Part shown: piece by piece, positions 3,473 through 42,083 of the stretch
Layout: each line of letters opens with the position of its first letter
Position numbering within the stretch: position 1 is the first letter of the stretch
Assembly (NCBI GenBank): GCA_050302495.1
Contig: JBNLBP010000001.1
Location: 1-63,268 of the forward strand
Length of the DNA: 63,268 nucleotides
From: Candidatus Pacearchaeota archaeon
GTDB taxonomy: Archaea > Nanobdellota > Nanobdellia > Pacearchaeales > GW2011-AR1
Reading direction: 5' to 3'
Position numbers and translations under genes: made by a program
Notes under the pieces: generated by a model
What the model saw: the letters and a program-made list of their open reading frames with translations, nothing else
Told to the model about the DNA's origin: nothing
Databases searched by the model: none

Positions 3473-3692
3473 ACACCTATAAAAAAGGCAAATAGATGGA
3501 ATGGACCGAAAATAGGGAGAACAAGCTTTTTAAAGGAAAATTCACTCTCCATAATACACCTTAAAGGTGAATAGGGATTAACCTAATGTGTGTTGACAAA
3601 TAGTTCCCTATGCTATGTTAAGACACAGAGGTTGTCATAGACAACAGATACGGACTGGTAACAGTTTAGGAGAGATGAAAGGAGGTCAAAAA

Positions 3693-6080
3693 ATGAAAAA
3701 ATTTAATTTTAAAAAAATAACTGCGCTTGCAGGTAGTTTGCTTATGGCAGGTGCTACAATGGGATTAGCTGCTGCAGCTAGTTACCCTGCTCCATTCGTA
3801 AGTGGAAGCAGCGCTAATGTTGCTATCGTTTACGGTACTGGGACTGGAGTTTCATCTCTAGACCTTATACAAGCAGGTAACTTACAAGCTGATTTACAAG
3901 CTTACTTGGGTACTGACTCTACAAACAGTGGATCAACAGTAACTGGAGGAGACTCATATAAATTTGAGAAGACTTCAACAAAGTTCCACTTAGGAGACAA
4001 CATAACTCAAGTTATCTCATCTAGTGTTGATGATGACGAGTTGCCAACTCTTCTTGCAGATGGAAAATACGTCGACAATGATAACGACGAATTTGACTAC
4101 ACTCAGAAGATTGACATCGGAGCAAACTTACAGCTAGGAATGTTCGAAGATAACGACTACGCTGAAGACCAACCTACAATTGGGTTCAGAGTTGCTTCTG
4201 GTACAGCTGTTCTAACATATACGTTAGATTTCAGTGATGAACCTGTTATCGGAGATCTTCCAACATCTGACTTGCCTATAATGGGTAAAAGCTACTACGT
4301 ATTGTCAAATAGTACAAGTGGAAGTAATATCATTTTAACTTTGTTAGATTCTGCTGATTCAACAATCTTGACAGAAGGAGAATCTGCGACTGTTGATGGT
4401 AAAGAAGTTGTTATAACTTACATAAGTTCTACAGAAGTTAAGTTACAAGTAGATGGACAAACTACAAACAGCTTGGCTGAAGGACAGACTCAAAAATTAA
4501 CTGATGGGTCATATGTAGGTGTAAAGGATATCTTGTACGACGCAAAAGATACTGGTGTTTCAAAAGTTGAATTCAGTATTGGTACAGGAAAATTAACTCT
4601 TACTAGCGGTTCAGATATACAAATGAACGATGAGTCAGTTTCTGGAATTAATGTAACTATTACAAATAGTACAGATAGCTTAAGTGATATTAAAATATCA
4701 TGGCTTGCAGATGATGATTTATTCATCACTGAAGATTCAGAAATTGAGATGCCTGGATTTGAAGCTGTTAAATTATCTTTCGGAGGATTAACTTATCCTT
4801 CTGAGGAGACTGTAACAATTCAACAAGGTGGAGACACTTATGCAGTTTTAGATAACTTCCCTCTTAAGGATGGTGAAGCAGATATAAATCTTTTATACGG
4901 AGCTTCTGGAGCATTTACAGGACTCGGTAAAGATGCTAACAATAAGTTAGTTACTGCTGCTACAGGAAGTACATTTACTTTCGACGGGGACACTGATGAC
5001 TATTTCGTTGCTTCATGGAGTGATGGTAGTGATGGTGAATCTTACCTTATGAGAGCTACAAACTTTGTAGTTGATGGTAGTGATAATAAGACTACTTTCC
5101 AATATTACAAAGATGGTTCTTGGGTGGATACTAAGACTGGAGCTAAAGAAGGAGACACTTTCTCATTAGGAAGTGTTGAAATTGTGGTAGATGTTGTTAA
5201 CAAAACAGATAAAACTGTTTTATTAGGAAACAATAGTGCTAACACAAACTTCAATACGCTTTACTCAAAGACTGGTTTGAAAGTTTTCTTACCTTATGAG
5301 GCAACAAACGCAACAATCGTTACTGGTGCTCCAGGTTCAATTAACTTTACTGCTGTTACAACAGGAGTTGGAGGAGATTTGGGTCTAGGACACAACGCTA
5401 CTTCATTCTATTTAACAATGGTTGAAGAAGACAAAGACGATAACGTTGCTAGCGGAGATACAATCAACGCTACAATTGGTTGGGACAGTTCTACAACTCA
5501 AGAAGTTGAAGTAAGTACCTATACTACTACAAACACTGACGCTACAAAGACTGAAATTGGAGATACAGACGTGTGGAGAGATTTCACATACTCTGCTCTT
5601 GCTACTGAGATATTAAGTAACGAGCCAAGTTCAGGTCAGAAGAGTTTGAAAGTAGTTTACCATGGCGGAGAAGTATCTGCTGATGTTTACATAACATCAC
5701 CGGACGCTACTGTTACAACAACAACTACAGGAGCTGGTTCTCTTGGAGATGTTCTTGTTAAAGATACAGAAGTAAGCTCAGTTTCTACTAAGAACTTGAT
5801 AGTAGTTGGAGGAAGTTGTATTAACTCAGCTGCTGCTTCACTAGTTGGAGGAGCATACTGTGGTGCAATGTTCACAGAACAAACAGGAGTAGGATCAGGA
5901 CAATTTGTAATAAAAGGATATTCTGATTCAACAATAACTAGTAAAATGGCTTTGCTTGTTGCTGGTTATGAAGCTGCTGATACTGTAAACGCTGCAACAT
6001 ACTTGAGAACACAAAAACCTGATACAAGCCAAGCTTGGGTCGGAACATCTTCTTCAAGTGCTACACTTCAGGTTGCGTAA
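3693..6080 (+). CDS. S-layer / major surface (glyco)protein candidate
   Basis: ATG at 3693 preceded by GGAGGT (3681-3686); signal peptide MKKFNFKKITALAGSLLMAGATMGLAAAAS; 795 aa Thr/Ser/Asp-rich with many N-x-S/T sequons; codon usage visibly GC-richer than surrounding genes (high expression); oligo-T terminator downstream. Confidence 0.55.
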   Translation: MKKFNFKKITALAGSLLMAGATMGLAAAASYPAPFVSGSSANVAIVYGTGTGVSSLDLIQAGNLQADLQAYLGTDSTNSGSTVTGGDSYKFEKTSTKFHLGDNITQVISSSVDDDELPTLLADGKYVDNDNDEFDYTQKIDIGANLQLGMFEDNDYAEDQPTIGFRVASGTAVLTYTLDFSDEPVIGDLPTSDLPIMGKSYYVLSNSTSGSNIILTLLDSADSTILTEGESATVDGKEVVITYISSTEVKLQVDGQTTNSLAEGQTQKLTDGSYVGVKDILYDAKDTGVSKVEFSIGTGKLTLTSGSDIQMNDESVSGINVTITNSTDSLSDIKISWLADDDLFITEDSEIEMPGFEAVKLSFGGLTYPSEETVTIQQGGDTYAVLDNFPLKDGEADINLLYGASGAFTGLGKDANNKLVTAATGSTFTFDGDTDDYFVASWSDGSDGESYLMRATNFVVDGSDNKTTFQYYKDGSWVDTKTGAKEGDTFSLGSVEIVVDVVNKTDKTVLLGNNSANTNFNTLYSKTGLKVFLPYEATNATIVTGAPGSINFTAVTTGVGGDLGLGHNATSFYLTMVEEDKDDNVASGDTINATIGWDSSTTQEVEVSTYTTTNTDATKTEIGDTDVWRDFTYSALATEILSNEPSSGQKSLKVVYHGGEVSADVYITSPDATVTTTTTGAGSLGDVLVKDTEVSSVSTKNLIVVGGSCINSAAASLVGGAYCGAMFTEQTGVGSGQFVIKGYSDSTITSKMALLVAGYEAADTVNAATYLRTQKPDTSQAWVGTSSSSATLQVA

Positions 6081-6090
6081 GTAAACACAA

Positions 6091-6123
6091 TTTTTATTTT
6101 TCTTTTTTTCTTTCTTTTTTTTT
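6091..6123 (+). terminator. oligo-T archaeal terminator after the S-layer candidate gene
   Basis: TTTTTATTTTTCTTTTTTTCTTTCTTTTTTTTT directly after stop at 6080. Confidence 0.55.
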
Positions 6124-6204
6124 AACTTCTGGCGATAGCCTTATTGGTTTACCGTCGGCAAAAACAATAAAAACCTTTTTATACTGAAATTCTTTTTATC
6201 CTTC

Positions 6205-6783
6205 ATGAGAAAAATAACTTCTAGAAGAAATGAAATGAGAAAACAGAAGAGGAACGGTACGATCTTAGTTGTTTTCCTTATAGTCGTGTTGTTTGGTAGT
6301 GTTTTTGGAGTTATAGTTAATTCTTTTGGATCTCAAGAAGCAGAAGGAAATTTGAAGTATAAAGGCCATACCTTCTTATACAACAACGGTTTTTGGACTG
6401 TAAAGGATATATCTAATGCGGTATTCACTTATAATCCTCAAGAGACTGAATCAGTAATTCTTGATAGGAAAAATATTGTTTCTGACCTTAGCAAATATTC
6501 TGGAGTTCCCGTTTATATTTATTCGGAAGATTCTGCTTCAGAGCTAGAAATTTATAGGAATTTATTTTACGTATCTGAAAGAATACAAAATGCGTGCCCT
6601 TTAGATAAAGAATGTTCTGAGGATATTCCAACAAAAGACTGCACAAGCAACTTTGTTATAATAGAGGTTTCAAACCAAAGTGAGATATATGAAGACCAAA
6701 ATTGTGTTTATATAAAAGGGCAAAAAGAAAACTTAATAAAGATAAGTGACGAATTCTTATTTAGTTTATATGGAATAAATTAA
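6205..6783 (+). CDS. hypothetical membrane-anchored protein
   Basis: Basic N-terminus plus one TM (ILVVFLIVVLFGSVFGVIV), Cys-containing ectodomain; TATA-like TTTTATAC ~25 nt upstream (possibly leaderless). Confidence 0.5.
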   Translation: MRKITSRRNEMRKQKRNGTILVVFLIVVLFGSVFGVIVNSFGSQEAEGNLKYKGHTFLYNNGFWTVKDISNAVFTYNPQETESVILDRKNIVSDLSKYSGVPVYIYSEDSASELEIYRNLFYVSERIQNACPLDKECSEDIPTKDCTSNFVIIEVSNQSEIYEDQNCVYIKGQKENLIKISDEFLFSLYGIN

Positions 6784-6784
6784 C

Positions 6785-7483
6785 ATGGCAAAGAAAACAA
6801 AGAAGAGCAATAAGAAATCTGTTAAAGAGGTCTTTGAAGTTGAGGATAAAAAGACAGGAGAATCAAAACAGATAGTTAAGAATTCTAAAGAACCTTCCGA
6901 ACATTCAGATAAAAAAGAAATTAAGAGAAATGAAAAACAACTTAAAGTAATACTAATCGTTCTTGGGGCATTAATTGTCTTCTTTTTTATAGTTTTCTTT
7001 GGATTAAACGGCATAAGGAATGCAAAATATGAAAATACTGAGTTTCAGACAGTTCAGGAAGGCCAACTTATATTCTATCAAACTTCAATACCAGTGATTT
7101 ATCAAGGAGCGGTAGTTCCATACAATTTCTACTTGAGAACTCACCCAAGAGATTTGAAGAAGATACCTTTCGAAGGTACGTTGGAACTTAAGAAGGGGTA
7201 TGCTCTTAATGTTACTCAGGACTTTAATTGTTACGGAGATGGGGTTATTGCTTTAGCTAATCTTGTTAAACAGAGAGATGTTATGGGAGTTACTACAATA
7301 AGTGGGGAAGTTGGGTGTGATGCTCAAAGTAGATATAATTATTATGAGATAATCGAGGGAGATGAAACAAAGATAGTTCAGAGAGGAGATACATCTTGTT
7401 ATGATCTTTACGTGAGCGACTGTGAAATTCTTCCGGTAACCGAAAAACTTATGGCAGAGACTTTTGTTAAGTTTAATGAATAA
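6785..7483 (+). CDS. hypothetical membrane-anchored protein with lysine-rich N-terminus
   Basis: KK-rich N-terminal 60 aa, one TM (VILIVLGALIVFFFIVFFGL), Cys-containing C-terminal domain; 1-nt spacing to upstream gene. Confidence 0.5.
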   Translation: MAKKTKKSNKKSVKEVFEVEDKKTGESKQIVKNSKEPSEHSDKKEIKRNEKQLKVILIVLGALIVFFFIVFFGLNGIRNAKYENTEFQTVQEGQLIFYQTSIPVIYQGAVVPYNFYLRTHPRDLKKIPFEGTLELKKGYALNVTQDFNCYGDGVIALANLVKQRDVMGVTTISGEVGCDAQSRYNYYEIIEGDETKIVQRGDTSCYDLYVSDCEILPVTEKLMAETFVKFNE

Positions 7484-8020
7484 TTATTTTATGTTCTTAA
7501 ATAAGAATTTTATATCTGAGTAGAAAGGTATTCCTTTTATCTTATATTTATTTACTTGATAGAACCAAATCAATATTACAAGAACTATGCTGCCAAAATA
7601 CCATAAGAATTTGTGTAGAATATCTGCAACGGGAGAGGTATTTAGGAAAAGAACACCTATTACAAATATTCTAATTATATTGAAAACCAAGAAGATTAAG
7701 AAAGACAATAAAAGGAGTTTTATTCTCTTAGGGAATTTCAATCCAGGAGTGGATAAATTAAGCATCAATAGTAAAAAATAAGCTGATCCAGCTATGCATG
7801 CCCCAATAATCTCTAGGGAAATAGGAAAACCTCTGAAATTTATTATATTTACAGGCGTTACATAAATGTCATAGAAGATATTGAATAAAAAATAAGTAGG
7901 ATATTTTGTAAGGGGTTCAAAGATGAAATAAAGGATAGATAGCCCAGATATTGCTATTATTAATAGAACTGCATATCTTATTACTAAATCAGTAAACCTC
8001 TTTTTGTTTGACTTATTCAT
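7484..8020 (-). CDS. small polytopic membrane protein, possible exosortase/archaeosortase-family protein
   Basis: 178 aa, ~4 TM; Cys in GACIAGS followed ~45 aa later by N-x-x-R (FNIIRIF) inside TM segments, resembling the Cys/Arg core of exosortase/archaeosortase; lies downstream of an adhesin gene with a C-terminal sorting-signal-like tail. Confidence 0.35.
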   Translation of the reverse strand: MNKSNKKRFTDLVIRYAVLLIIAISGLSILYFIFEPLTKYPTYFLFNIFYDIYVTPVNIINFRGFPISLEIIGACIAGSAYFLLLMLNLSTPGLKFPKRIKLLLLSFLIFLVFNIIRIFVIGVLFLNTSPVADILHKFLWYFGSIVLVILIWFYQVNKYKIKGIPFYSDIKFLFKNIK

Positions 8021-8050
8021 AGGTTATTTAGATAAATATAATTTAAAAGA

Positions 8051-8494
8051 TTATAGCTTTATTTCAAGATCTTTGTAATACTCTTCTGGAGACAAAGCCT
8101 CATTGCCATTAATCCCATCCATTTCTGGATCGAATAACAACAATAAATCATCTTTTGGAGGGTCTTGTTTTCCATATTTGTTGAAGATATAAATTATCGG
8201 GAATTGTGATCGAGTTACGCTATCACCTCTTATCTTGAGGGGTGTAAATTCAACAACATCAAATATTGAATCCTTCGGGGAATCTAGGTCATAATAATCC
8301 ACCCTCATAAGATTGCTACCGCTGTTACCAAAATAGTAACCGCTAGAATAATCTGGAACAGGGTTTCTTTTCTGATAACCCTTAAACTTTCCAGGGAGAA
8401 AATCCTGTGAATTAGAATTTGAAGAAAGGGCAAAAAAGGCTAAAGGCAAAATTAATTTAGATAGGCTTTTCATAATAGAATTACTTTCTTGCAA
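8051..8494 (-). CDS. secreted hypothetical protein
   Basis: Signal peptide MKSLSKLILPLAFFALSSNSNS; 14-nt overlap with upstream adhesin gene (operon). Confidence 0.5.
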   Translation of the reverse strand: MQESNSIMKSLSKLILPLAFFALSSNSNSQDFLPGKFKGYQKRNPVPDYSSGYYFGNSGSNLMRVDYYDLDSPKDSIFDVVEFTPLKIRGDSVTRSQFPIIYIFNKYGKQDPPKDDLLLLFDPEMDGINGNEALSPEEYYKDLEIKL

Positions 8495-10061
8495 CTCTTA
8501 CTGCAATTATAATTATAACTATTACAAGGATTAAATTAAGTAATCCAATTCCCCATAAGTGCCAGTTTGATCCACTTATTGCGAATCCAGTTATCAAAGA
8601 TTTCTTTGATACTTCAACAGATACAGGTTGATTTGCAATTAAAGCTCCACTTGAGATAACTTCTATGTTGAATATTTCTTCTCCGAAAGCATCAGATTTA
8701 ACGTCAAGAGTTATCAAAACATCTTCTGATTCTCCAGCGTCAAGAGTCAAAGTAGTCTTAGTTAAGTCAGCTCCATCAGCCCAAGATCCGTAACCTGCAA
8801 CGTTTAAAGTATAAGTAGTAGTTTTTTCTCCTGAATTGATTAATGTAGCTTTAACAGTTAAAGGTTTTCCAGCTTGTCCTCCATCTTGAAGAACTGCGTG
8901 TACTTCAGCATCAGTAGAACTCGAACACTCACCAGAAATTGTTACAGATTGTGAAAATGTAGATAACTCGTCATCATGGTCTGCTTCGTATATGTCTCCG
9001 TCTTCGTCAAGTACAGAGAACTTAAAGTTGTAAGTTCCTGAAGCATCTTCTGGAATTGGAATAGTTAAACTGAATGATTCTGAATTTAAAGCATCAATAT
9101 CTCCAACTGAAACATATTTTTCAATTCCAAGTCTTGATTCAACAACTTTAACTTCTATATCATCTTGGTCTCTGTCTCCAATATTCCAAACGTCTCCTGA
9201 AATAATCATATCAGAACCACATTGAAGATTTTCTGGTAATTTAAGGTCATCTAATACAGCAAAATCTCTTTCAATAATTATATCAACTGATTCAGAAGTG
9301 AAATCACAAGTATTTGGTTTTGAATCAATATCTACTTCACCTGTTGCTCTTGCATATAATTCGTAAGATCCATCTTCAAGATCTTCAAGGTCAATATCTA
9401 AATCATGATCATCAAGTGTGAAGCTGATTGTAACTGTCTCATCATCTCCATCCTTTATTTTAAAGCTATCAACATCATCTATTTCAATAATCCATTCATT
9501 GCTTGAGCTGTCGTAAATACCCCATTCAAGTTCAACATCTCTCAAGTCTTCATCTCCATTGTTTTCGATTCTAACTTCAATTTCTATTTGGTCTAGAGGG
9601 AACCATTCTTCATCGTCACCGATACCTTCTTTTATTTGAATATCTCTTATTTCTATGTCTAAATCTCCCCCATAGTTCTCATATTTACACAAATTAGTGT
9701 TTTGTGCAGTAACTGAGTAAGATAGAGTTTCAGATCCTGATTGAGTTATATCAAATGTAGAAGTGTAAGATTTAAGGAAATCAAAATCTCTTAAATTAAC
9801 TTGAGGAGTAACTGTCAAAACAGTTTCATTGTTAGAGTCAAGTGTTGTATTTCCTGAAACGGCAAAAGTAACCCCATTAATAGTAAAATCACTGTAAGAG
9901 ATATCACTTGAAATATTTGAACTAACAGTAATAGTTTGTGAGTTATTGTTATTAAAGGTTAATGAGGAAGGGCTTACACCTAAAGTTGCACTAGTAAATC
10001 CAGCTAAAAGCAATAATGCAAACATGCTTACAAACACTAAAACTAAATTTTTGTTTTTCAT
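8481..10061 (-). CDS. acidic surface adhesin-like protein (CARDB-like repeats) with C-terminal TM anchor / sorting-signal-like tail
   Basis: Signal peptide MKNKNLVLVFVSMFALLLLAGFTSA; Asp/Glu-rich beta-repeat regions; C-terminus TGFAISGSNWHLWGIGLLNLILVIVIIIIAVRVARK is a short motif + TM helix + basic tail, the tripartite layout of PGF-CTERM-type archaeosortase signals. Confidence 0.55.
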   Translation of the reverse strand: MKNKNLVLVFVSMFALLLLAGFTSATLGVSPSSLTFNNNNSQTITVSSNISSDISYSDFTINGVTFAVSGNTTLDSNNETVLTVTPQVNLRDFDFLKSYTSTFDITQSGSETLSYSVTAQNTNLCKYENYGGDLDIEIRDIQIKEGIGDDEEWFPLDQIEIEVRIENNGDEDLRDVELEWGIYDSSSNEWIIEIDDVDSFKIKDGDDETVTISFTLDDHDLDIDLEDLEDGSYELYARATGEVDIDSKPNTCDFTSESVDIIIERDFAVLDDLKLPENLQCGSDMIISGDVWNIGDRDQDDIEVKVVESRLGIEKYVSVGDIDALNSESFSLTIPIPEDASGTYNFKFSVLDEDGDIYEADHDDELSTFSQSVTISGECSSSTDAEVHAVLQDGGQAGKPLTVKATLINSGEKTTTYTLNVAGYGSWADGADLTKTTLTLDAGESEDVLITLDVKSDAFGEEIFNIEVISSGALIANQPVSVEVSKKSLITGFAISGSNWHLWGIGLLNLILVIVIIIIAVRVARK

Positions 10062-10170
10062 TTGTAATCATTTTGGAGTTACTATGGTTTATAAATATTT
10101 CTATTTTACAAAATATGAATTAATTTTCCTATCTCAAAACATTTATATAATTGTCTGGCTGTAAGTAGAT

Positions 10171-10557
10171 ATGCTTAAGTCAAAAGAGAACGAAATAGGT
10201 GCATGGTCTTTTTTGGTAGGAGTTATTCTTGCTATTTTAATAGGTTTGACTACCTCACTTATCCCCATTCCTGCTTTGGTTAGGTTAAGCTCTCCAATTT
10301 ACGCTCTTTTAGTTATTTTAGGTCTTTTGATAGGGGGTTGGAATGTTCCGAGTGGAAAGGATTCTCAGAAGTTCTTGATTGCGGGAGCAGTATTAGTAAT
10401 AGTTAGTAGATTTGGTATGGATAGTGTTACAGGCTCTTTAATTGGTATTGGAATAGGTGATGCTGTTGCAGCTGTATTTAGTGCTTTATTAGTGTTGTTT
10501 GTGCCTGCTACAATAGTTGTAGCGCTGAAGAACGTGTTTTCTGTGGCAAGAGTTTAG
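10171..10557 (+). CDS. small integral membrane protein
   Basis: 128 aa, 3-4 hydrophobic helices, Gly-rich. Confidence 0.45.
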   Translation: MLKSKENEIGAWSFLVGVILAILIGLTTSLIPIPALVRLSSPIYALLVILGLLIGGWNVPSGKDSQKFLIAGAVLVIVSRFGMDSVTGSLIGIGIGDAVAAVFSALLVLFVPATIVVALKNVFSVARV

Positions 10558-25675: not shown

Positions 25676-27628
25676 ATGGCATGGAACTTGTATGAAGGTG
25701 ATAAATTTCTTGATCCTATGCGGTTTTCAAATGGTAAAACCCAAGAGGATGTTGTTAAAGAGGTTTTGAAAGCTATTGAAGACGGGGAGAAGATAATCTT
25801 CATTCACGGAATGTGTGGAACTGGAAAAAGTGCAATAGCCTTGAATATTGCGCGTGAACTAGGAAAGACTTCTATTGTGGTTCCGATAAAGAACCTTCAG
25901 CAACAATATAAACAAGATTATAGTGGAGAGGGAAGGAAATCTGTTGCGAAAGACAATAAAGAAAAATTAAAGATTTCTGTAATAACTGGAAGAAATAATC
26001 ATAAATGTAAATTCATTGAAGATAATGAAAATGCTATACCTCGGGTTAAGAAAGAGGTAGATTCTAAACTTCATGATATCTTTGAAGGTCGTAGAGAAGA
26101 GAGTAAAGAAAATCTTGGGGATGATATTTCTGCAGATAATCTTAATATACCGTGTAAGATCGAGATAAAAGAAAAGAATTGGGAAAAGATAAAAAGATAT
26201 TTAAGACAAAATCCAAGGATTGATGTAAAAAACTTTACCCAAATATCCGATGTAAAAAGGTTACCTGTTGCGGCAGTTTGTCCGTATTGGAGCCCGGTAT
26301 TTCCTGAAGAATACGATATAAAAGTTCTTGAAGAAGAATCCAGAAGAACTTATAGAGGTTTGAAGGGAAAGAATTTTGTGTTCTACCAAAGGAAGAGAGG
26401 TTGTTCATTTTATGAACAATTTCATTCATACATTGAATCAGATGTAATTGTGTTCAATTCTATGAAGTATCAACTCGAATCTGCACTAAATAGAAAACCG
26501 TATACTGAAGCAGAAATAGTAGATGAATGTGATGAATTCTTGGATAGTTTTTCTAATCAGAGAAATATCAATATTGATAGATTAATTAGTTCTTTGAAAG
26601 GAATATTTTCTACAGATGAGGATAATTTTATGAAAATCTCAGAAGTCCAACAAATATTACAACATCTAAAAAACGATAAGAGGATAAATGATGCTATTTA
26701 CAATAGAGATATCATTCCTTTAAAAGAAACAGGGATTTATGATTTATTCAAGGTATTCATAAAAAATTCAGAATTCTTAGAAGAAGCAGATGAAGAAAGT
26801 TATGTTTTTGATGTAGATAAAACTGCAAAAATGTTTGAGGAATTCTTGAATGATTCTCATGTTATATTTAGTAAGAAAGATGAAGCAATTATTGCAAGTG
26901 TTGTTACTGTTAATCTTTCTAAGAAATTTAAGGAAATGGTTAACAAAAACAAAGTTGTTGTCTTGATGTCAGGAACATTGCATTCGGAGGAAGTTCTTAG
27001 AGATATATTTGGTTTAGATAAATTCAAATTAATACAGGCTGAAGATAAATCTCCTGGAGAAATGTTTGTAAAAAGAACAGGTAAAGAAATGGATTGCAAA
27101 TATTCTAATTTTTCTTCGGGGAAACACACCAGAGAAGAATATCTTAAGGCTCTTGACTTGTGTGTTGGCAATTCAAAGAAGCCTACACTAATTCATGTAA
27201 ATGCGTTTCAAGATCTTCCAACATATCAGGAAATAGATGATTATGATTTGAAGAACCTTGTTTCCCCTGATGAATTGATTCGGGAACAGAAAGAAGATGA
27301 AAACGGTGGACTTATTTCAGACTTTAAATCAGGAAAGAAAGAGGTATTGTTCTCAACAAGAGCTTCAAGAGGGGTAGATTTTCCAGGAGATCAATGTAAT
27401 TCGATAATATTTACAAAGTATCCGAATCCGAATGTTAGAGATCCTTTTTGGCAGATATTAAACAAAACCAAACCTAACCAGTATTGGAGTTTTTACAGAG
27501 ATAAAGCCAAGAGAGAGTTATTGCAGCAAGTTTACAGAGGTTTAAGGTTTAAGGAAGATAAAGTAGAGGTTTGGAGTCCTGACACAAGAGTTTTAGATTT
27601 CTTTGAAGATAGTTCTAATTTTTCTTAG
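25676..27628 (+). CDS. XPD/Rad3-like superfamily 2 helicase (divergent, with Cys-rich putative FeS insert)
   Basis: Walker A GMCGTGKS, DECDEF (DExD-like) box, Cys cluster (HKCKF...PCKIE...VCPYW), C-terminal LFSTRASRGVDFPGDQCNSIIFTKYPNP resembling XPD-family motifs V/VI. Confidence 0.5.
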   Translation: MAWNLYEGDKFLDPMRFSNGKTQEDVVKEVLKAIEDGEKIIFIHGMCGTGKSAIALNIARELGKTSIVVPIKNLQQQYKQDYSGEGRKSVAKDNKEKLKISVITGRNNHKCKFIEDNENAIPRVKKEVDSKLHDIFEGRREESKENLGDDISADNLNIPCKIEIKEKNWEKIKRYLRQNPRIDVKNFTQISDVKRLPVAAVCPYWSPVFPEEYDIKVLEEESRRTYRGLKGKNFVFYQRKRGCSFYEQFHSYIESDVIVFNSMKYQLESALNRKPYTEAEIVDECDEFLDSFSNQRNINIDRLISSLKGIFSTDEDNFMKISEVQQILQHLKNDKRINDAIYNRDIIPLKETGIYDLFKVFIKNSEFLEEADEESYVFDVDKTAKMFEEFLNDSHVIFSKKDEAIIASVVTVNLSKKFKEMVNKNKVVVLMSGTLHSEEVLRDIFGLDKFKLIQAEDKSPGEMFVKRTGKEMDCKYSNFSSGKHTREEYLKALDLCVGNSKKPTLIHVNAFQDLPTYQEIDDYDLKNLVSPDELIREQKEDENGGLISDFKSGKKEVLFSTRASRGVDFPGDQCNSIIFTKYPNPNVRDPFWQILNKTKPNQYWSFYRDKAKRELLQQVYRGLRFKEDKVEVWSPDTRVLDFFEDSSNFS

Positions 27629-28370
27629 AAGAGAATATTATTAGAGCTATGAATAACACTAAATATAATATGCTGAATATTACCATTAATCCAAACAACA
27701 CAGGATGATTCTTTGTTATGATGTCTCCAAAATAAGTTTGTATAAATATCATTGGTATTAACCCGAGCATTGTTGCTAAAAGAAATTTGTAAGTCTTAAT
27801 CTTTGTAAACCCAGATAAGTAACTTACCAGATCAGAAGTTGTAAGAGGATTTATCCTTAATATAAAGATTGATAGTGCTCCGTATTTATCAAAGAATTTG
27901 TTAAATTTCTTTTGCATTCTTTTATCCATTCTATTTTGAATAAAATTTCCATCAAAATTTCTTGCAATCTTAAAATCTATAAAAGCCCCAATAAGATTTC
28001 CCCCAAATACTAGGATCCCCCCATAAAACCCTCCAAACAATGCCCCTGCTACAATATAGAGTATTAGAGGAGGCATAGGTGCTAAAACTACTTCAAGAAT
28101 AACTAGTAAAACAAATATTATTTCTGTAAAACCTTCAAAAGACTTCAAGAATAAAAGTAGATTTTCAACATCTCCTTTTATTAAAATATAAATTAAGCTT
28201 TTATTAATATAAGAATAAACCATCCATGCAATTAGTATTAAAAACATGGTTAAGATTAACCAATGCTTTTGAAAGAAATTTTTACCTCTTTTCATAAATG
28301 CTTTAGGAAAATATTCTATATAAGTCTTAAGGAATAAACGCCCCCGCCAGGAGTCGAACCTGGTTGCCAA
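27615..28370 (-). CDS. DedA / SNARE-associated (TVP38/TMEM64) family membrane protein
   Basis: VLAPMPPLILYIVAGALFGGFYGGILVFGGNLIGAFIDFKIARNFG matches the DedA core; 251 aa, multiple TMs. Confidence 0.7.
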   Translation of the reverse strand: MATRFDSWRGRLFLKTYIEYFPKAFMKRGKNFFQKHWLILTMFLILIAWMVYSYINKSLIYILIKGDVENLLLFLKSFEGFTEIIFVLLVILEVVLAPMPPLILYIVAGALFGGFYGGILVFGGNLIGAFIDFKIARNFDGNFIQNRMDKRMQKKFNKFFDKYGALSIFILRINPLTTSDLVSYLSGFTKIKTYKFLLATMLGLIPMIFIQTYFGDIITKNHPVLFGLMVIFSILYLVLFIALIIFSSKKN

Positions 28371-28417
28371 AAGGCCCAGTTCTCAAGACTGGTGCACGAC
28401 CGTTATGCGTCGGAGGC
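28339..28417 (-). tRNA. tRNA-Ser (anticodon UGA), long variable arm
   Basis: Minus-strand cloverleaf: acceptor GCCTCCG/CGGGGGC, anticodon stem CCAGT/ACTGG with loop CTTGAGA, 12-nt variable arm GCCTTTTGGCAA, T-arm CCAGG-TTCGACT-CCTGG; no encoded CCA. Confidence 0.75.
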
Positions 28418-28453
28418 GTAATTATAAAATTAAAGAGTAGATTAAAAAGATTT

Positions 28454-34692: not shown

Positions 34693-34925
34693 GACCAATA
34701 GCAACTGAAAAAGCAGTAATGAAAATTGAAGCAGAGAATGTAATGACCTTTGAATTTGATAAAAGAATGAATAAAGAGGACATTAAGAAAGAAATTGAAG
34801 AGCTTTTAGATGTTAAAGTTGATTCGGTTAAAACGCAAATAAGAAAGAACAAGAAAATTGTTTACGCTAAATTAAATAAGAAGAACCTTGCAATTGATCT
34901 TGCAACTAAATTAGGAATGATGTAA
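34689..34925 (+). CDS. rpl23: ribosomal protein L23 (uL23)
   Basis: 78 aa; typical uL23 size and basic beta-rich sequence. Confidence 0.85.
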   Translation: MRPIATEKAVMKIEAENVMTFEFDKRMNKEDIKKEIEELLDVKVDSVKTQIRKNKKIVYAKLNKKNLAIDLATKLGMM

Positions 34926-34926
34926 A

Positions 34927-35625
34927 ATGGGAAAGAGAATAATACAACAGGCACGGGGAAAGGGAAGTTCAACTTATAGAGTTAAGAGAAAAGCTTTCAG
35001 TCACAAAATCCAATATCCAAGAGGATTAACTGGAGAAGGAAGAATTGTAAAGTTATTCTTAACTGGTGGACATAGTGCTCCGCTTGCAAAGATAAACTGG
35101 TCTGGAGAGAGTTTTTATGTTCCTGCATTCAAAGGAATGGTTCAAGGAGAGAAGATTAATTTTGATTCAAAAGAAATTGTTAAAGGAAGTATCCTTGAGT
35201 TAGGAGATATTCCACTTAAGACAAAGATATTTTGCATTGAATCGAGACCTGGAGATGGTGGAAAGTTCATAAAGACTGCAGGAAGTTCTGCAGAAGTTGT
35301 TAGAAGGGTCGGCAAAAATGTTCATGTATTAATGCCGTCGAAAAAAGAAAAACCTTTTAACCCGAAATGTCGGGCTATTATTGGTGAAGCTGCTGGTCAT
35401 GGTAGAACAGACAAACCAATAATGAAAGCTGGAAAGCAACATCATATTAAGAAAGCAAAAAGTAAATTATGGCCAAGAACAGGTGCATTGAAAGTTAATG
35501 CTATCGATCATCCTTTCGGTTCAGGTAGAGGAAAGAACCCTAAGAGCAAGATTGCAAAGAGAAATTCAGCTCCTGGTCAAAAGGTTGGTTTATTGAGACC
35601 AAGAAGGACAGGTAAGAGAAAGTAA
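34927..35625 (+). CDS. rpl2: ribosomal protein L2 (uL2)
   Basis: 232 aa; GRNSAPGQKVGLLRPRRTG and conserved His region match uL2. Confidence 0.9.
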   Translation: MGKRIIQQARGKGSSTYRVKRKAFSHKIQYPRGLTGEGRIVKLFLTGGHSAPLAKINWSGESFYVPAFKGMVQGEKINFDSKEIVKGSILELGDIPLKTKIFCIESRPGDGGKFIKTAGSSAEVVRRVGKNVHVLMPSKKEKPFNPKCRAIIGEAAGHGRTDKPIMKAGKQHHIKKAKSKLWPRTGALKVNAIDHPFGSGRGKNPKSKIAKRNSAPGQKVGLLRPRRTGKRK

Positions 35626-35626
35626 A

Positions 35627-35995
35627 ATGGAAATGAAATTACAAACAACTGGAATAAAGTATGAAAATCTAGTTGGAAAAGGATTAGAACTTTTTTGTGA
35701 AAGTGCGGTCAATAAAGATGAAAATGTTGTGGGAAGGTATCTTCCTGGAATTGAGGGACAAGAGATAACCTATTTAGGAAATTTAGGACATAGATTCGGA
35801 GAAAGAGATTTATTTGGATTTGAAGAAGACAATAAATTGACTGTCCTTGTTGGAAACATAAAAGACATTACTGGAAACAGGGCAACGTTAAGCACCTTTG
35901 TTCAAAGCATTTCCCCAAATTTTTACGGAACTGAAAATTTGAGTGATGAGATTTTAAAACAATGCAAAGAGATTTTGTCAGGAGTAAAAGAATAA
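35627..35995 (+). CDS. small hypothetical protein inserted between L2 and S19
   Basis: 122 aa; 1-nt spacers on both sides; Gly-rich, no TM. Confidence 0.5.
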   Translation: MEMKLQTTGIKYENLVGKGLELFCESAVNKDENVVGRYLPGIEGQEITYLGNLGHRFGERDLFGFEEDNKLTVLVGNIKDITGNRATLSTFVQSISPNFYGTENLSDEILKQCKEILSGVKE

Positions 35996-35996
35996 A

Positions 35997-36401
35997 ATGG
36001 TAGATATAGGATCACAAAAGAAACAATTCAAGTATCGAGGCAAAGATATTGAAGAGTTGAAGGCTTTAGATACTCGAGAGGTTGCAAAATACCTTGATTC
36101 GAGAGCTAGAAGAACTGTACTTAGAAACTTCCAAGAAATTGAGGATTTCCTTCAGAGAGCTAAGAGAAAACAATCAAAGAATAAGAAGATTAAAACTCAT
36201 AAGAGAAAATTGATAGTTGTTCCTCAAATGGTTGGAATGCAAATCCAAGTACATAACGGAAGAATGTTTATTCCAATTGAGGTTGTCCCGGAGATGATCG
36301 GACATTATTTGGGAGAATTTTCATTAACAAGGGCAAAAGCTTCACATAGTAAATCAGGAGTTGGTGCTACTAAGGGTAGTAGAGCCAAATCCAAGAAGTA
36401 A
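35997..36401 (+). CDS. rps19: ribosomal protein S19 (uS19)
   Basis: 134 aa; HNGRMFIPIEVVPEMIGHYLGEFSLTR matches uS19. Confidence 0.9.
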   Translation: MVDIGSQKKQFKYRGKDIEELKALDTREVAKYLDSRARRTVLRNFQEIEDFLQRAKRKQSKNKKIKTHKRKLIVVPQMVGMQIQVHNGRMFIPIEVVPEMIGHYLGEFSLTRAKASHSKSGVGATKGSRAKSKK

Positions 36402-36406
36402 GTAAA

Positions 36407-37018
36407 ATGACAGAAAAACAATACGCTCCAAGTGCTAAAGAAAAGAAGATGTCTACAAAGAAAGTAGAATCCCCAGTAGCAGAAGCTCCTAAAAAGGTTG
36501 AAGCTAAAGAAAATAAAACTGAAGAGAAAAAAGTTGAAGAAAAGAAAACAGAAGTAAAGCAACCTGTTAAAGTTACAAAAGTTAAGAAAGATCTTGCTGT
36601 AGTTAATGCAAACAATTCAAAAGTTTCATTAAAATATGCAATAAGCATTTGTAAATTCATTAAAGGCAAAAGAATTGGCGATGCGATAAGAGATTTAGAA
36701 GCAGTTGTTGTTAAGAAAAAGGCAGTTCCAATGACTGGAGAGTATGCGCATAAGAAAAGTGTAAAGAAATATGCATCAGGTGCTGGAAAATACCCTGTTA
36801 ATGCTGCAAAGGCTTTCCTTGTGTTGGTTAAAAGCCTTTTAGGAAATGCTAATGCAAATGACATAAATGAACCTGTAATCACTGAATGTATTGCAAACAA
36901 AGCCCCCAAACCAATGGGAAGATTTGGAAGATGGGAAAGAAAAAGATGCCACATCAAATTGGTTGCAAGAGAAATTAAAGTTAAAGAGAATAAAGCTAAG
37001 ACAGAGGAAAAGAAATAA
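36407..37018 (+). CDS. rpl22: ribosomal protein L22 (uL22) with ~55-aa Lys/Glu-rich N-terminal extension
   Basis: C-terminal 150 aa match uL22; N-terminal KKVEAKENKTEEKKVEEKK low-complexity extension. Confidence 0.85.
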   Translation: MTEKQYAPSAKEKKMSTKKVESPVAEAPKKVEAKENKTEEKKVEEKKTEVKQPVKVTKVKKDLAVVNANNSKVSLKYAISICKFIKGKRIGDAIRDLEAVVVKKKAVPMTGEYAHKKSVKKYASGAGKYPVNAAKAFLVLVKSLLGNANANDINEPVITECIANKAPKPMGRFGRWERKRCHIKLVAREIKVKENKAKTEEKK

Positions 37019-37019
37019 A

Positions 37020-37712
37020 ATGGAAGAAAAACAAACTGTAAAATTCAAGAAGGAAGACTTTGCTATAAAGGAAATCATAAGAAAGACAATTGGAAAGGGA
37101 AAGATGAGCAGAGTTAGAATTGAATATACTCCGGTTGGAGAAAAAGTAATAATCTCCACAGATAAACCAGGTTTGGTTATTGGAAGGGGTGGAGAGAGTT
37201 TGAACGAATTAAGTGATATGCTTAGAAAGAATTTCAAATTCCAAAATTTACATATTGAAATTGAAGAAATAAAAGAACCTGAATTTGACTCTCAAACTAT
37301 TGCAGATGAGATTGCTTTAGGTTTAGAGAGAGCTGGACCATTAAAGTTCAAGGTTATTGCTTACAGAACACTTGAGAAAGTGATGAAAGCGGGAGCATTA
37401 GGTTGTGAAATAAGATTAAGCGGAAAACTTCCAAGTTCAAGAGCTAAGACATGGAGATTCGCTCAAGGATATTTAAAGAAAACAGGAGACTCTGCAAAGG
37501 TTGTAAGTCGTGCTCAAGCAAGAGCTGAGACTAAGCCGGGAACTGTGGGAGTTAAGGTTAGTATATTATCACCGCATGCAATATTGAAAGATAGAATAAA
37601 GATCAACGAAGATTTGATAAACCAGTTGAAAGAAAACGCTGAAAAATTAAATGAAGTTCCAGAGAAGAAAACTAAGAAAAAAGCTAAGACTGCTAAGGAG
37701 AGTAAAAAATGA
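37020..37712 (+). CDS. rps3: ribosomal protein S3 (uS3)
   Basis: Start at ATG 37020 directly after the L22 stop (the 36891 start overlaps L22); KH motif VIGRGGESLNEL; Lys-rich C-tail. Confidence 0.9.
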   Translation: MEEKQTVKFKKEDFAIKEIIRKTIGKGKMSRVRIEYTPVGEKVIISTDKPGLVIGRGGESLNELSDMLRKNFKFQNLHIEIEEIKEPEFDSQTIADEIALGLERAGPLKFKVIAYRTLEKVMKAGALGCEIRLSGKLPSSRAKTWRFAQGYLKKTGDSAKVVSRAQARAETKPGTVGVKVSILSPHAILKDRIKINEDLINQLKENAEKLNEVPEKKTKKKAKTAKESKK

Positions 37713-37903
37713 AACACTCAGAAGTAAAGAAATTAAGTAAGACAGACAGAGATAAGAAATTAAAAGAACTAAAGTTGGAATTAGTTAAAGAAAACGTATC
37801 AAAGCAAGGCGGAAATAAATCTGCTAAAATAAGAAAAATAATCGCAAGAATACACACACTCAACAACATGGAAAATAAACCCAAGGAGTTGAATAACAAA
37901 TAA
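37709..37903 (+). CDS. rpl29: ribosomal protein L29 (uL29)
   Basis: 64 aa helical, KLKELKLELVK pattern; ATGA overlap with S3. Confidence 0.8.
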   Translation: MKHSEVKKLSKTDRDKKLKELKLELVKENVSKQGGNKSAKIRKIIARIHTLNNMENKPKELNNK

Positions 37904-37907
37904 AACA

Positions 37908-38207
37908 ATGGAAATAGATCCAAAAACAGGATTGCCAGTTCAGGCAATGGAGTGGGAAGACCTTGCAAAGGGTTCCCAAAAAATACGGGTAACGACCGAT
38001 AAAAAAAGATACGGAAAGATCGTTACTCTAGTGAGTGGTTTCGACAAAGGAATCGACATAAAGAAAACCGCAAAGGCATTGAAGAATGAACTTGCGTGTG
38101 GCGGGACCTTTAAGGACGATGCAGTTGAACTGCAAGGAGACCACACAAAGAAAGTAAAGCAAGTCCTTGTAAAAATGGGATTTGACGAAAGCTCCATAGA
38201 AGACTGA
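37908..38207 (+). CDS. sui1: translation initiation factor SUI1 (aSUI1/eIF1)
   Basis: 99 aa; IRVTTDKKRYGKIVTLVSGF...LACGGT matches the SUI1 fold; canonical position after L29. Confidence 0.8.
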   Translation: MEIDPKTGLPVQAMEWEDLAKGSQKIRVTTDKKRYGKIVTLVSGFDKGIDIKKTAKALKNELACGGTFKDDAVELQGDHTKKVKQVLVKMGFDESSIED

Positions 38208-38225
38208 AGAGGTGAAAAATAAAAA

Positions 38226-38570
38226 ATGGAAAGTAAGAAAATGAAAAAAACAGAAGTAAAAGAATCAAAAATAGTTGGAACTGAAAAGAGTATAAACCCA
38301 AGAGGAAAGATCTTCGAGGGAGTTGTAACAGCAAAGTTCCACAAGAGAATAACAATCGAATTCGAAAGAATGGTTTATATTAGAAAGTATGAAAGATATG
38401 CAAAGTCGAAGACAAAAATCCATGCAAGACTCCCAGTTTCAATGGAAAACGAAGTTAATGTTGGAGATTTGATAAGAGTTCAAGAGTGTAGACCTTTAAG
38501 TAAGATAATCCATTTCATCGTGGTTAAGAAATTAAAAGATGCTTCAGAAATTTTAGGAGGAAAGAAATAA
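38226..38570 (+). CDS. rps17: ribosomal protein S17 (uS17)
   Basis: 114 aa; GKIFEGVVTAKFHKRITIEFERMVYIRKYERY matches uS17. Confidence 0.9.
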   Translation: MESKKMKKTEVKESKIVGTEKSINPRGKIFEGVVTAKFHKRITIEFERMVYIRKYERYAKSKTKIHARLPVSMENEVNVGDLIRVQECRPLSKIIHFIVVKKLKDASEILGGKK

Positions 38571-38571
38571 G

Positions 38572-38973
38572 ATGAAAGCAATAAGTTCAAGAGCTACAGA
38601 AGGATTGAATTTGGGGGCAATAATGGTTGCTGCAGACAATAGTGGGGCTAAAGTTGTAAAATTAGTTTCGGTTAAGAAAGCTAAAGCTAAGAAGGGAAAA
38701 CAAGTTGCTGGAAAGATTGCTGACTGGGTTAAAGTATCCGTAAGAAAAGGTGTTCCAGATATGAAAGGAAAAGTGTTTGATGCAGTAATAGTTAGACAGA
38801 AAAAACCATGGAGAAGGAATACGGGGGAGAGAGTTGCATTTGAAGATAACGCTGTTGCAATCTTGAAAGACGATAAAGGTAATCCGAAAGGAACTCAAAT
38901 TAAAGGACCAATTGCAAGGGAGGTTCAGGAGCGATGGCAATCTGTTGCTAAAATAGCTCAAACTGTTTATTAA
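38572..38973 (+). CDS. rpl14: ribosomal protein L14 (uL14)
   Basis: 133 aa; LNLGAIMVAADNSGAK matches uL14. Confidence 0.9.
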   Translation: MKAISSRATEGLNLGAIMVAADNSGAKVVKLVSVKKAKAKKGKQVAGKIADWVKVSVRKGVPDMKGKVFDAVIVRQKKPWRRNTGERVAFEDNAVAILKDDKGNPKGTQIKGPIAREVQERWQSVAKIAQTVY

Positions 38974-38974
38974 A

Positions 38975-39472
38975 ATGAAGAACAAATTTTCAACAAAATG
39001 GAAGGCAAGTAAGAGACCTTCAAAGCAGAGAAAGTATTTAGCAAATGCTCCTTTACATATAAAGGCAAAACTAGTTAGCGTAAATCTTGCAAAACCTCTT
39101 AGAAAGACTTCAGAAAAGAGAAATGTTCCAGTAAGAAAGGATGACAAGGTAAAGATTATGAGAGGTAAATTCAAAGGGAAAGAAGGAAAGGTTTTGAGTG
39201 TAAGTACAAAATATTCAAAAGTAATTGTCGAAGGAATAACAATCAAGAAAATGGATGGTTCACAAGCAAATGTTCCATTAAAACCTTCAAACTTACAGAT
39301 AATTGAGATGACAGATAGAAAACAAAAAGCAGTTTCTGAGAAGAAGACTGAAGTAAAAAAAAGAGTCTCTGAAACAAAGTCTCAGGACTCATCCGCTGTA
39401 GCGACGTCGAACGAAACACCTAAAAAGGAAGTTAAAGAAGTAAAAGATAAAGGTAAGGAGAATAAAAAATGA
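38975..39472 (+). CDS. rpl24: ribosomal protein L24 (uL24) with Lys-rich C-terminal extension
   Basis: KOW motif KDDKVKIMRGKFKGKEGKV; ~50 extra C-terminal residues. Confidence 0.85.
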   Translation: MKNKFSTKWKASKRPSKQRKYLANAPLHIKAKLVSVNLAKPLRKTSEKRNVPVRKDDKVKIMRGKFKGKEGKVLSVSTKYSKVIVEGITIKKMDGSQANVPLKPSNLQIIEMTDRKQKAVSEKKTEVKKRVSETKSQDSSAVATSNETPKKEVKEVKDKGKENKK

Positions 39473-40119
39473 AACATCTAAAGAGAGAAGTAGTACCAAA
39501 GAGTTGGCCAGTTCCAAGGAAAGGAACAACTTTTGTAGTTAGATCTAACTCAAATCCTGAAAAGGGTGTTCCAATGTTGATATTCCTTAGAGATATGGTA
39601 AAGGTTTCTCAAAATAGAAAAGAAGTGAAGAGAGCTTTAGTTAACAAGAATATTCTAATTAATGGAAAATACGTTTCAGATGAGAAAAACGCAGTTGTAT
39701 TACTTGATGTTGTTACAATTGTTCCATCAAAGAAATATTTCGTTCTTGATTTAACAGAAAACGGAAAGTTCGTTGCTAGAGAAATATCTGAGAAAGAGTC
39801 AATGAATAAAGTTTCAAAGATTACCGGAAAGAAATCTCTAAGAGGGAAGAAAACTCAAATTAATTTGATAGACGGAAGAAATTTCATCTCAAATGTAAAA
39901 TGTGTAGTAGGAGATTCTGTTTTGATTGATTTCAAAGGAAATAAAATTGAGAAATGTGTTCCATTGAAAGATAAAGCGAAAGTAATTATTTTTGCAGGAA
40001 AACACGCAGGAATGAAAGGAGAAATAGAAAAGATTGACGAGGAAAGAAAGATGGCTTCAGTGTCTTCAAATGGAGAAAAAATAAATGTTCTTGTTGAACA
40101 ACTAATGGTAACAGAATAA
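39469..40119 (+). CDS. rps4e: ribosomal protein S4e (eS4)
   Basis: 216 aa; MKHLKREVVPKSWPVPRKGTTFVV matches eS4. Confidence 0.9.
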   Translation: MKHLKREVVPKSWPVPRKGTTFVVRSNSNPEKGVPMLIFLRDMVKVSQNRKEVKRALVNKNILINGKYVSDEKNAVVLLDVVTIVPSKKYFVLDLTENGKFVAREISEKESMNKVSKITGKKSLRGKKTQINLIDGRNFISNVKCVVGDSVLIDFKGNKIEKCVPLKDKAKVIIFAGKHAGMKGEIEKIDEERKMASVSSNGEKINVLVEQLMVTE

Positions 40120-40120
40120 A

Positions 40121-40639
40121 ATGGCAGAAGAAAAAACTGAAAAAGTAAACCCTATGAATGAGGTTAAAATTGAAAAGGTAGTTTTAAGCATAGGTGGGAC
40201 TGGAGATTATTTGGATAGAGGTTACAGATTGTTGAAATATCTTACAGGAAAGAATCCTATGAAGACAAAGGCTCAGAAAAGAATTCCAGCATGGGGGGTT
40301 AGACCTGGTTTGGAAGTTGGAGCAACAGTAACATTAAGGAAAGATGCTATTGATTTTTTGAAGAGAATGTTGGTTACAATAGATAATAACTTGAAAAAGA
40401 AGCAAGTAAGTGAAAATAGTCTTTCATTTGGAATAAAAGAGTATATTGAAATACCTGATGTAGAATATCAAAGGGATATCGGTATAATGGGGTTCGATGT
40501 AACAATAACATTTAAGAGATCAGGAAGAAGAGTTAAATTAAGAAAGATAAAATCTGGAAAAGTTGGAAAAAAACAGATTATAAAGAAGGAAGAAATAGTA
40601 AAATATATGGAGGATAATTTCGGAACGGAATTTATATAA
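40121..40639 (+). CDS. rpl5: ribosomal protein L5 (uL5)
   Basis: 172 aa; NPMNEVKIEKVVLSIGGTG matches uL5. Confidence 0.9.
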   Translation: MAEEKTEKVNPMNEVKIEKVVLSIGGTGDYLDRGYRLLKYLTGKNPMKTKAQKRIPAWGVRPGLEVGATVTLRKDAIDFLKRMLVTIDNNLKKKQVSENSLSFGIKEYIEIPDVEYQRDIGIMGFDVTITFKRSGRRVKLRKIKSGKVGKKQIIKKEEIVKYMEDNFGTEFI

Positions 40640-40640
40640 A

Positions 40641-40907: not shown

Positions 40908-40908
40908 A

Positions 40909-41139: not shown

Positions 41140-41153
41140 ATTGCAAAAGTAAA

Positions 41154-41534: not shown

Positions 41535-41535
41535 A

Positions 41536-42078: not shown

Positions 42079-42083
42079 TTAAA

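Follow-up and report, generated by a model that had tools for sequence, protein, structure and literature searches.

Among the described relatives of the system reported here, the archaeosortase ArtA of Haloferax volcanii (HVO_0915; MEROPS C106) is a polytopic membrane cysteine enzyme that carries the superfamily signature TIGR04178 and acts on proteins with a PGF-CTERM signal, a major surface protein being among its substrates. Cys173, Arg214, and Arg253 of ArtA are experimentally critical (PMC9263693), Cys173 has been modelled as forming a thioester intermediate (PMC7157517), and the requirement of an archaeosortase for helix removal and lipid attachment has been demonstrated for Haloferax ArtA only (PMC7157517; PMC9263693). 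A 2018 review reported archaeosortases in a subset of Euryarchaeota. Closer to our locus are two NCBIfam families, NF033505 ("pacearchaeosortase") and NF033506 ("PACE-CTERM-PROT, putative S-layer protein"), and GenBank records of metagenome-assembled genomes (MAGs) already carry both family names. Here, we describe a pair of this kind in a 63,268-nucleotide (nt) stretch of a Candidatus Pacearchaeota genome (GCA_050302495.1, contig JBNLBP010000001.1), hereafter called the window. We consider it very likely that the pair is a dedicated sorting system of exosortase/archaeosortase type belonging to Pacearchaeota-like DPANN archaea, in which one enzyme, a pacearchaeosortase of 178 amino acids (aa), serves one substrate, a PACE-CTERM target of 526 aa.

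The window pair agrees with the NF033505/NF033506 system in its matches to the two models, in length, in its Cys, Arg, and His residues, in its C-terminal tail, in gene order, and in the DPANN host range of its homologues. It differs by a lineage-specific 140-aa open reading frame (ORF) between the two genes, a homologue of which occurs in 3 of 119 related loci (throughout, figures per 119 refer to loci among the matches listed by the tail scan described below). The first-pass annotation of the window had suggested a reduced or novel enzyme; novelty has to be given up, since curated NCBIfam models with these names exist for both enzyme family and target, and the names also appear in GenBank MAG annotations. 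The pacearchaeosortase/PACE-CTERM system is already known to database curators and genome annotation, the window's own proteins are present in NCBI assemblies without names, and the pair calls for annotation rather than a discovery claim.

The comparison with ArtA is one of shared design and different proportions. Like ArtA substrates, the PACE target has a tripartite signal whose motif abuts the helix. ArtA, however, has ~303 aa (from a 912-bp gene) against 178 aa for the pacearchaeosortase, as the first-pass annotation had rightly pointed out, and it serves many substrates (nine in H. volcanii and up to 52 elsewhere), whereas the relation is one to one here. In addition, the ArtA substrate motif is PGF, whereas the PACE tail has N-W-x-L-W-G-I-G and no PGF, and the ArtA model is absent from the NCBIfam match list of the 178-aa protein even at an expect value (E) of ≤10. 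By analogy, the window enzyme would work like ArtA, but it is not an ArtA.

Identification of the enzyme is based on profile hidden Markov models. The 178-aa protein matches NF033505 at 198.6 bits (cutoff, 80; E = 7.5e-59), with residues 10-178 aligned to positions 2-167 of the 167-position model, and it matches the exosortase/archaeosortase signature TIGR04178 at 33.4 bits (cutoff, 23), with residues 69-155 on positions 1-93 of 97. These scores bear out the earlier proposal of a minimal archaeosortase-like enzyme. A word-indexed search returned 175 homologues, almost all of the listed ones ~165-210 aa long, and several of them bear the name "pacearchaeosortase" in GenBank records of MAGs assigned to Pacearchaeota, Woesearchaeota, and Nanoarchaeota. 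An exhaustive profile search gave 504 cluster representatives at E ≤ 0.001, of which 345 also reach E ≤ 1e-10, and the top 150 are mostly ~165-210 aa, with some shorter fragments and a few longer proteins of up to 261 aa. Given these numbers and the names already present in GenBank, the pacearchaeosortase family is large, coherent, and already catalogued. The 178-aa protein, which is basic (isoelectric point [pI], 9.9), is a pacearchaeosortase by its sequence, and within the exosortase/archaeosortase family it is predicted to act as a cysteine protease or transpeptidase with four membrane spans.

The enzyme contains one Cys (C75, within IIGACIAGSAYF), one His (H136), and the element N114-x-x-R117 (FNIIRIF), after which no further Arg follows. 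Among 256 distinct homologues that are 30-70% identical to the window protein, C75 and R117 are kept in 256 of 256, H136 in 255 (the sole exception being a gap in a short 165-aa sequence), and N114 in 99.2%; a smaller alignment agrees. The Cys and the N-x-x-R had previously been read as the exosortase core at a spacing of ~45 residues. Their invariance in the family upholds the choice of residues, and the spacing is corrected to 42, as against 41 residues between Cys173 and Arg214 of ArtA (PMC9263693). A nearly invariant Cys/Arg/His set is also the presumed triad of the whole family (Haft 2023; bioRxiv 10.1101/2023.06.07.544157).

An AlphaFold model of the sortase, built with the family alignment, has a predicted local distance difference test (pLDDT) value of 91.7 and a predicted template modelling score of 0.85. 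It shows helices at residues 3-25, 28-49, 73-89, 96-126, 132-158, and 167-177 and a beta-hairpin at 52-70. Lys and Arg cluster at the N-terminus (5 residues), in the loop 90-103 (4), and at the C-terminus (6), and the segments 28-72 and 127-133 are nearly without charge. When the positive-inside rule is applied to these clusters and combined with the model helices, four membrane spans are predicted (3-25, 73-89, 96-126, and 132-158), in line with the four-span topology proposed earlier, with the N-terminus, the loop 90-103, and the C-terminus inside. Helix 28-49 and the hairpin would lie outside, and C75, R117, and H136 are predicted to sit in the outer membrane leaflet, a placement that may bring the three residues opposite the start of the target's tail helix.

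The target is very acidic (pI 4.05; 99 Asp and Glu against 30 Lys and Arg) and matches NF033506 at 414.2 bits (cutoff, 110), with residues 61-526 aligned to positions 150-627 of 627; its N-terminal domain is shorter or more divergent than that of the model. The Pfam CARDB model (PF07705) recognises it at 39.5 bits against a threshold of 22.7, in three stretches of which residues 266-364 score best, so that its description as an acidic CARDB-like surface protein is confirmed. Hydrophobic segments lie at residues 6-24 and 505-523, a signal peptide is predicted at ~aa 1-25, and the AlphaFold model (pLDDT, 88) contains four putative beta-sandwich (CARDB/Ig-like) domains at ~aa 27-121, 134-261, 268-376, and 385-485. 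Several of the 77 homologues are labelled "putative S-layer protein" by NCBI. A fold search with the model returned generic Ig/macroglobulin-domain strings alone (TM-score, <0.27) and no sequence relatives of the target were found in the PDB, so it can be read equally well as an adhesin or as an S-layer subunit.

The target ends in ...LITGFAISGSNWHLWGIGLLNLILVIVIIIIAVRVARK, i.e., a motif followed by a hydrophobic helix and a basic tail. More specifically, a linker (ITGFAISGS) precedes N499-W-H-L-W503-G-I-G506 at the helix start, the transmembrane helix follows, and the protein closes with the basic R522-V-A-R-K526. Alignment of the last 50 residues of 74 target homologues gave the consensus V-S-V-x-I-E-K-x-G-(F)-G-I-T-G-x-x-I-s-G-d-N-[WK]-Y-[LI]-W-G-I-G-x-L-N-x-I-L-x-x-x-I-I-x-V-A-x-R-x-A-R-K-COOH. 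N499 is kept in 63 of the 74, W503 in 67, G506 in 60, N509 in 70, L512 in 72, I516 in 73, A520 in 72, and R/K522 in all 74, with I517 as a further fixed position of the helix. The tail is far better conserved than the ectodomain, reaching 3-4 bits per column in the helix against a mean column identity of 39% over the whole protein.

The tripartite layout of motif, helix, and RVARK that had been noticed beforehand is thus conserved in the 74 homologues. TGFAISGS, then proposed as its core motif, stands up as a signature in part only. It corresponds to a weakly to moderately conserved I-T-G...S-G stretch (T in 48 of 69 and G in 53 of 69) that is absent from three of four syntenic loci examined (L002-L004), and it falls in a linker in which aa 490-497 form the sole disordered segment of the target model (pLDDT, <50), directly before helix 500-525. 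The invariant part starts at N499, and N499-W-x-[LI]-W503-G-I-G506 and the helix positions are best conserved. Since the most conserved positions lie there and TGFAISGS lies in the disordered linker, the part recognised by the sortase is most likely the N-W-x-L-W-G-I-G cap together with one helix face. This reading accords with a remark by Haft (2023) on signals processed by enzymes that lie deep in the membrane, whose motif adjoins the helix directly and whose helix residues may be conserved.

From the tail alone (N509 to R525) we derived a degenerate DNA pattern, which the window contains once and 100 shuffled versions do not contain at all. Given this result and the conservation across hundreds of homologues, neither the Cys and Arg residues nor the tail can be put down to chance. 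The 63-kb window contains no second protein with a PACE tail. A 226-aa ORF at 27615-28295 on the minus strand is the sole other one that ends in a hydrophobic C-terminal helix and a basic stretch (...IIFSSKKN); it has a tail-anchored layout without the PACE motif, and its longer TTG start makes its upstream end overlap a tRNA-Ser gene (28338-28418).

We ran the same pattern against one genome per species for 185,579 prokaryotic species and obtained at least 119 loci. All but two of the 119 listed are in MAGs of Pacearchaeota, Woesearchaeota, Nanoarchaeota, and similar DPANN archaea. The two strays come from a Desulfamplus MAG (L007), where the pattern falls in an ORF of 47 codons and is followed by 29 residues, and from an alphaproteobacterial MAG, and neither shows target or sortase homology. 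Homology to target residues 1-470, i.e., outside the tail, was found in 112 of the 119 loci, the rest being contig-end cuts or strays. A sortase homologue is present in 111 and lies downstream on the same strand in 110, at a median distance of ~300 nt (range, 23-2508 nt). Among these loci, no contig and no accession series of an assembly recurs, and they include contigs of 535 kb and 660 kb, which must represent most of a genome. In addition, each of four distant sortase homologues on long contigs (L002-L005) has its gene shortly downstream of one for a 543-560-aa protein that carries the same tail.

A search of the genome for other proteins with this tail had been called for as a check, and those found across genomes are orthologues of the same protein: among the matches listed, the PACE tail is on orthologues of a single protein alone, with the sortase adjoining. 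The suggestion that the enzyme is dedicated to its neighbour is supported by this pattern, which fits the "dedicated" sorting system as defined by Haft (2023).

A few loci depart from the common arrangement. In L070 (JAGVWP010000003.1), the best sortase match is on the strand opposite the tail-bearing gene, and a search of the 3.3 kb and 1.4 kb downstream of the tail in L103 (DYFY01000003.1, labelled Parvarchaeum) and L113, respectively, returned no sortase; these three may be rearranged or split systems. In L005 (GCA_026002795.1, BPGA01000001.1), a gene for a PAP2-family lipid phosphatase lies between target and sortase on the opposite strand (5335-5883), possibly as a link to the lipid side of the reaction, possibly by coincidence.

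Other described systems set the pair in a wider frame. The small size of the pacearchaeosortase is not unprecedented, because the models of archaeosortase B (TIGR04144) and exosortase X (NF046081) are equally short, with 156 and 168 positions, so that family members of 160-170 aa already exist, and their alignments span nearly the whole 178-aa protein. They score far below their cutoffs, however (8.8 against 150 bits and 11.2 against 170 bits, respectively), and represent separate subfamilies with other sorting signals. The JDVT-CTERM system with its myxosortase-like protease (Haft 2023) shares with the PACE pair one target per genome, adjacent genes, and conserved residues in the transmembrane helix, but its enzyme is unrelated, being a glutamic or metallo intramembrane protease of the CPBP/Rce1 type rather than a Cys/Arg/His enzyme of the exosortase fold; moreover, JDVT-CTERM-type signals have an invariant Cys and the PACE tail has none. 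Sortase A of Gram-positive bacteria, with its LPXTG signal, is a functional analogue in its Cys/His/Arg set, in a thioacyl intermediate that is resolved by an amine, and in a C-terminal motif, helix, and basic tail. It differs in its unrelated fold (an extracellular beta-barrel with a single anchor), in the spacer between motif and helix, and in a product that ends up on peptidoglycan and not on lipid.

Starting from the observed family membership, invariant Cys/Arg/His set, conserved tail, and gene pairing, we propose the following course of events. The 526-aa protein would be exported via Sec by its N-terminal signal peptide, and its C-terminal helix would hold it in the membrane for a time, with RVARK in the cytoplasm. 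The sortase would then recognise the tail within the membrane through N509, L512, I516/I517, and A520 and the N-W-x-L-W-G-I-G cap, as the conservation of these positions suggests. By analogy with Haloferax ArtA, Cys75, helped by Arg117 and His136, may attack a peptide bond close to where the tail helix ends on the outer side (~aa 497-506), and, if the parallel with Cys173 and Arg214 of ArtA holds, a thioacyl-enzyme would form and the helix would be released. In the least certain step, likewise modelled on ArtA, the intermediate would be resolved onto the amine of a membrane lipid, e.g., archaetidylethanolamine. The string of four beta-sandwich domains would in this way end up on the cell surface with a lipid anchor, forming part of an S-layer or an adhesin.

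Several points weigh against a dedicated pair that works in this manner. For cleavage, its site, and lipid attachment, the scheme extrapolates from a homologue whose similarity is limited to a ~90-residue core, and the third critical residue of that homologue is Arg253, where the window enzyme has His136. The unusually strong conservation of the tail helix would likewise be expected if the helix were kept as a functional element and not discarded. Since the tail pattern catches about half of known tails and the loci number at least 119, a second, divergent target per genome is possible. The names "pacearchaeosortase," "paceosortase," and "PACE-CTERM" were not found in the searchable literature. 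Finally, the Pfam model Exosortase_EpsH (PF09721) stays below threshold (12.4 against 25.7 bits). This model has 254 positions, of which the last ~90 alone align to the 178-aa protein, and a few sortase homologues carry a precomputed PF09721 match; we consider it uninformative as a membership test for so short a member and let the NCBIfam models decide.

The pair could also be explained in other ways. A true pacearchaeosortase might act as an endopeptidase only, with water resolving the acyl-enzyme and the target being released to the S-layer or the medium, held there non-covalently if at all. The proteolytic role alone is firmly established for archaeosortases, one-step transpeptidation onto lipid by ArtA being still a hypothesis (Haft 2023), and no lipid-synthesis gene (pssA or pssD) was seen beside the pair in the window or in L002-L004. 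The adjoining conserved 821-aa S_layer_C-like protein (see below), in turn, could be a non-covalent docking partner. We nevertheless regard this version as improbable, given that in the one system studied, cleavage and lipid modification both disappear when ArtA is lost, that the Cys/Arg/His set parallels that of transpeptidating sortases, and that a protein destined for release would have no need of so strictly constrained a signal within the membrane.

The near-invariance of N509, L512, I516, and A520, which exceeds what a disposable segment usually needs and would suit a lasting helix-helix complex, speaks for another reading, in which the tail helix anchors the target permanently and the small membrane protein stays with it as a stable partner, e.g., a chaperone or an assembly or positioning factor, and not a processing enzyme. 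In such a non-catalytic partner, however, there would be no cause for Cys75, Arg117, and His136 to be kept as strictly as they are, nor does the role sit well with a match to the signature model of a protease family (TIGR04178). Conserved helix positions, moreover, are also found in signals cut by intramembrane proteases, such as JDVT-CTERM (Haft 2023), and we judge a permanent anchor very unlikely. The shortness of the protein and the sub-threshold Pfam EpsH score led us to consider, in addition, that the adjacency is coincidental and that the 178-aa protein is a CPBP/Rce1-like, rhomboid-like, or transporter fragment with a chance match of its Cys and Arg. No support for this was found, and its probability is close to nil. 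Neither CPBP, named as an alternative in the first-pass annotation, nor Rce1, rhomboid, or any other protease or membrane family matched in Pfam and NCBIfam even at E ≤ 10; NF033505 matches over the full length, and target and sortase genes run in the same direction in 110 of 119 independent genomes. The reading as an unrelated small membrane protein is refuted by that match, by the pairing, and by the invariance of the residues.

The family retains some biological interest. At ~175 aa, pacearchaeosortases are among the smallest members of the exosortase/archaeosortase family, and with a single adjoining substrate they offer a compact model system for a long-open question, i.e., how a transmembrane signal is recognised by cysteine enzymes of this intramembrane type and whether cleavage and lipidation by them form one step. 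The pair also places archaeosortase-type anchoring in DPANN archaea. Searchable literature containing both "archaeosortase" and "DPANN" consisted of general reviews or of papers on other topics, and the two terms stood unconnected in the one source examined. What the locus retains in value is a minimal model sortase that is also part of a conserved DPANN envelope gene cluster (Table 1).

Table 1. Sorting genes, predicted functional sites, and flanking genes of the window. Homologue counts of flanking genes cover only related loci with enough room, among the matches listed.
Feature	Position	Strand	Basis or occurrence
PACE-CTERM target gene, 526 aa	8481..10061	-	ORF; NF033506; CARDB; AlphaFold
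Target C-terminal sorting signal, aa 489-526	8484..8597	-	Conservation in 74 tails; codon positions
Intervening ORF, 140 aa from ATG 8473	8051..8473	-	Lineage-specific insert; no family match
Pacearchaeosortase gene, 178 aa	7484..8020	-	NF033505; TIGR04178; AlphaFold
Cys75 codon, predicted nucleophile	7796..7798	-	Sole Cys; kept in 256/256
N114-I-I-R117 codons, Arg117 predicted catalytic	7670..7681	-	R117 in 256/256; N114 in 99.2%
His136 codon, third predicted active-site residue	7613..7615	-	Sole His; kept in 255/256
SepF homologue			58/62 loci
128-aa membrane protein	10171-10557	+	Homologue in 75/80 loci
232-aa N-anchored protein	6785-7483	+	Homologue in 78/86 loci; opposite strand to sortase in 77/78
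192-aa N-anchored protein	6205-6783	+	Homologue in 56/62 loci; opposite strand to sortase in 56/56
821-aa protein	3615-6080	+	Homologue in 35/38 loci; opposite strand to sortase in 35/35

The three minus-strand ORFs that the first-pass annotation had grouped together are all present, in the order target (ending at 8481), intervening ORF, and sortase (starting at 8020). The window has a G+C content of ~33%. Upstream of the operon lie FtsZ, Spt5, L11, tRNA-Pro, L37ae, prefoldin beta, and SepF, and the locus therefore belongs to the archaeal core chromosome. The intervening ORF is co-directional with its neighbours, begins 7 nt past the target stop, and has a signal-peptide-like N-terminus. From a TTG start it would encode 147 aa (8051-8494), and the ATG at 8473 is the more plausible start. 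This small secreted protein had been counted as part of the system. We rejected it as a third component, since it has no Pfam or NCBIfam match, a homologue occurs in so few of the related loci, and the gap between target and sortase elsewhere (L003-L005 included) holds nothing, other small ORFs, or the oppositely oriented PAP2 gene.

A box (TTTATAAA) at 10088-10095 on the minus strand ends 27 nt 5' of the target ATG. It would fit an archaeal TATA box and a transcript with almost no leader, as weak evidence, such strings being common at 33% G+C. The 109-nt spacer 5' of the target also serves the divergent gene of the 128-aa membrane protein (10171-10557, plus strand).

The sortase pair is embedded in a strongly conserved cluster (3615-7483 and 10171-10557 of the window, both on the plus strand). 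The 232-aa, 192-aa, and 821-aa genes are convergent with the sortase gene in the related loci, as they are in the window, and the small flanking proteins have no Pfam or NCBIfam assignment. The 821-aa secreted protein scores just below the S_layer_C threshold (21.3 against 23.9 bits), and orthologues of it have recorded PF05124 matches, one unmarked (L005) and one weak (L004). It has 11 N-X-S/T sequons and no C-terminal anchor. Its listed ORF start (MLRHRG...) is probably too far upstream, since MKKFNFKK... looks like the true signal peptide. The 821-aa protein may be the real S-layer canopy and the PACE-CTERM protein its membrane tether.

A broader hypothesis, which we put forward tentatively and regard as rather unlikely in its entirety, makes the pair the anchoring half of a two-part DPANN envelope module. 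In it, the lipid-anchored PACE-CTERM protein would tether the 821-aa protein, whose gene is convergent together with those of the 192- and 232-aa N-anchored proteins, the lipid would be scavenged from the host, and the fixed residues of the tail helix would constitute a minimal, tractable recognition code. Pacearchaeota-like DPANN archaea are generally thought to lack full lipid synthesis, and the sortase would therefore need a scavenged, host-derived lipid.

Farther along the window, at positions 34900-47500 on the plus strand, short ORFs follow one another in the same direction over a long distance, with strong purine and GC skew; the run looks like the large ribosomal-protein gene cluster.

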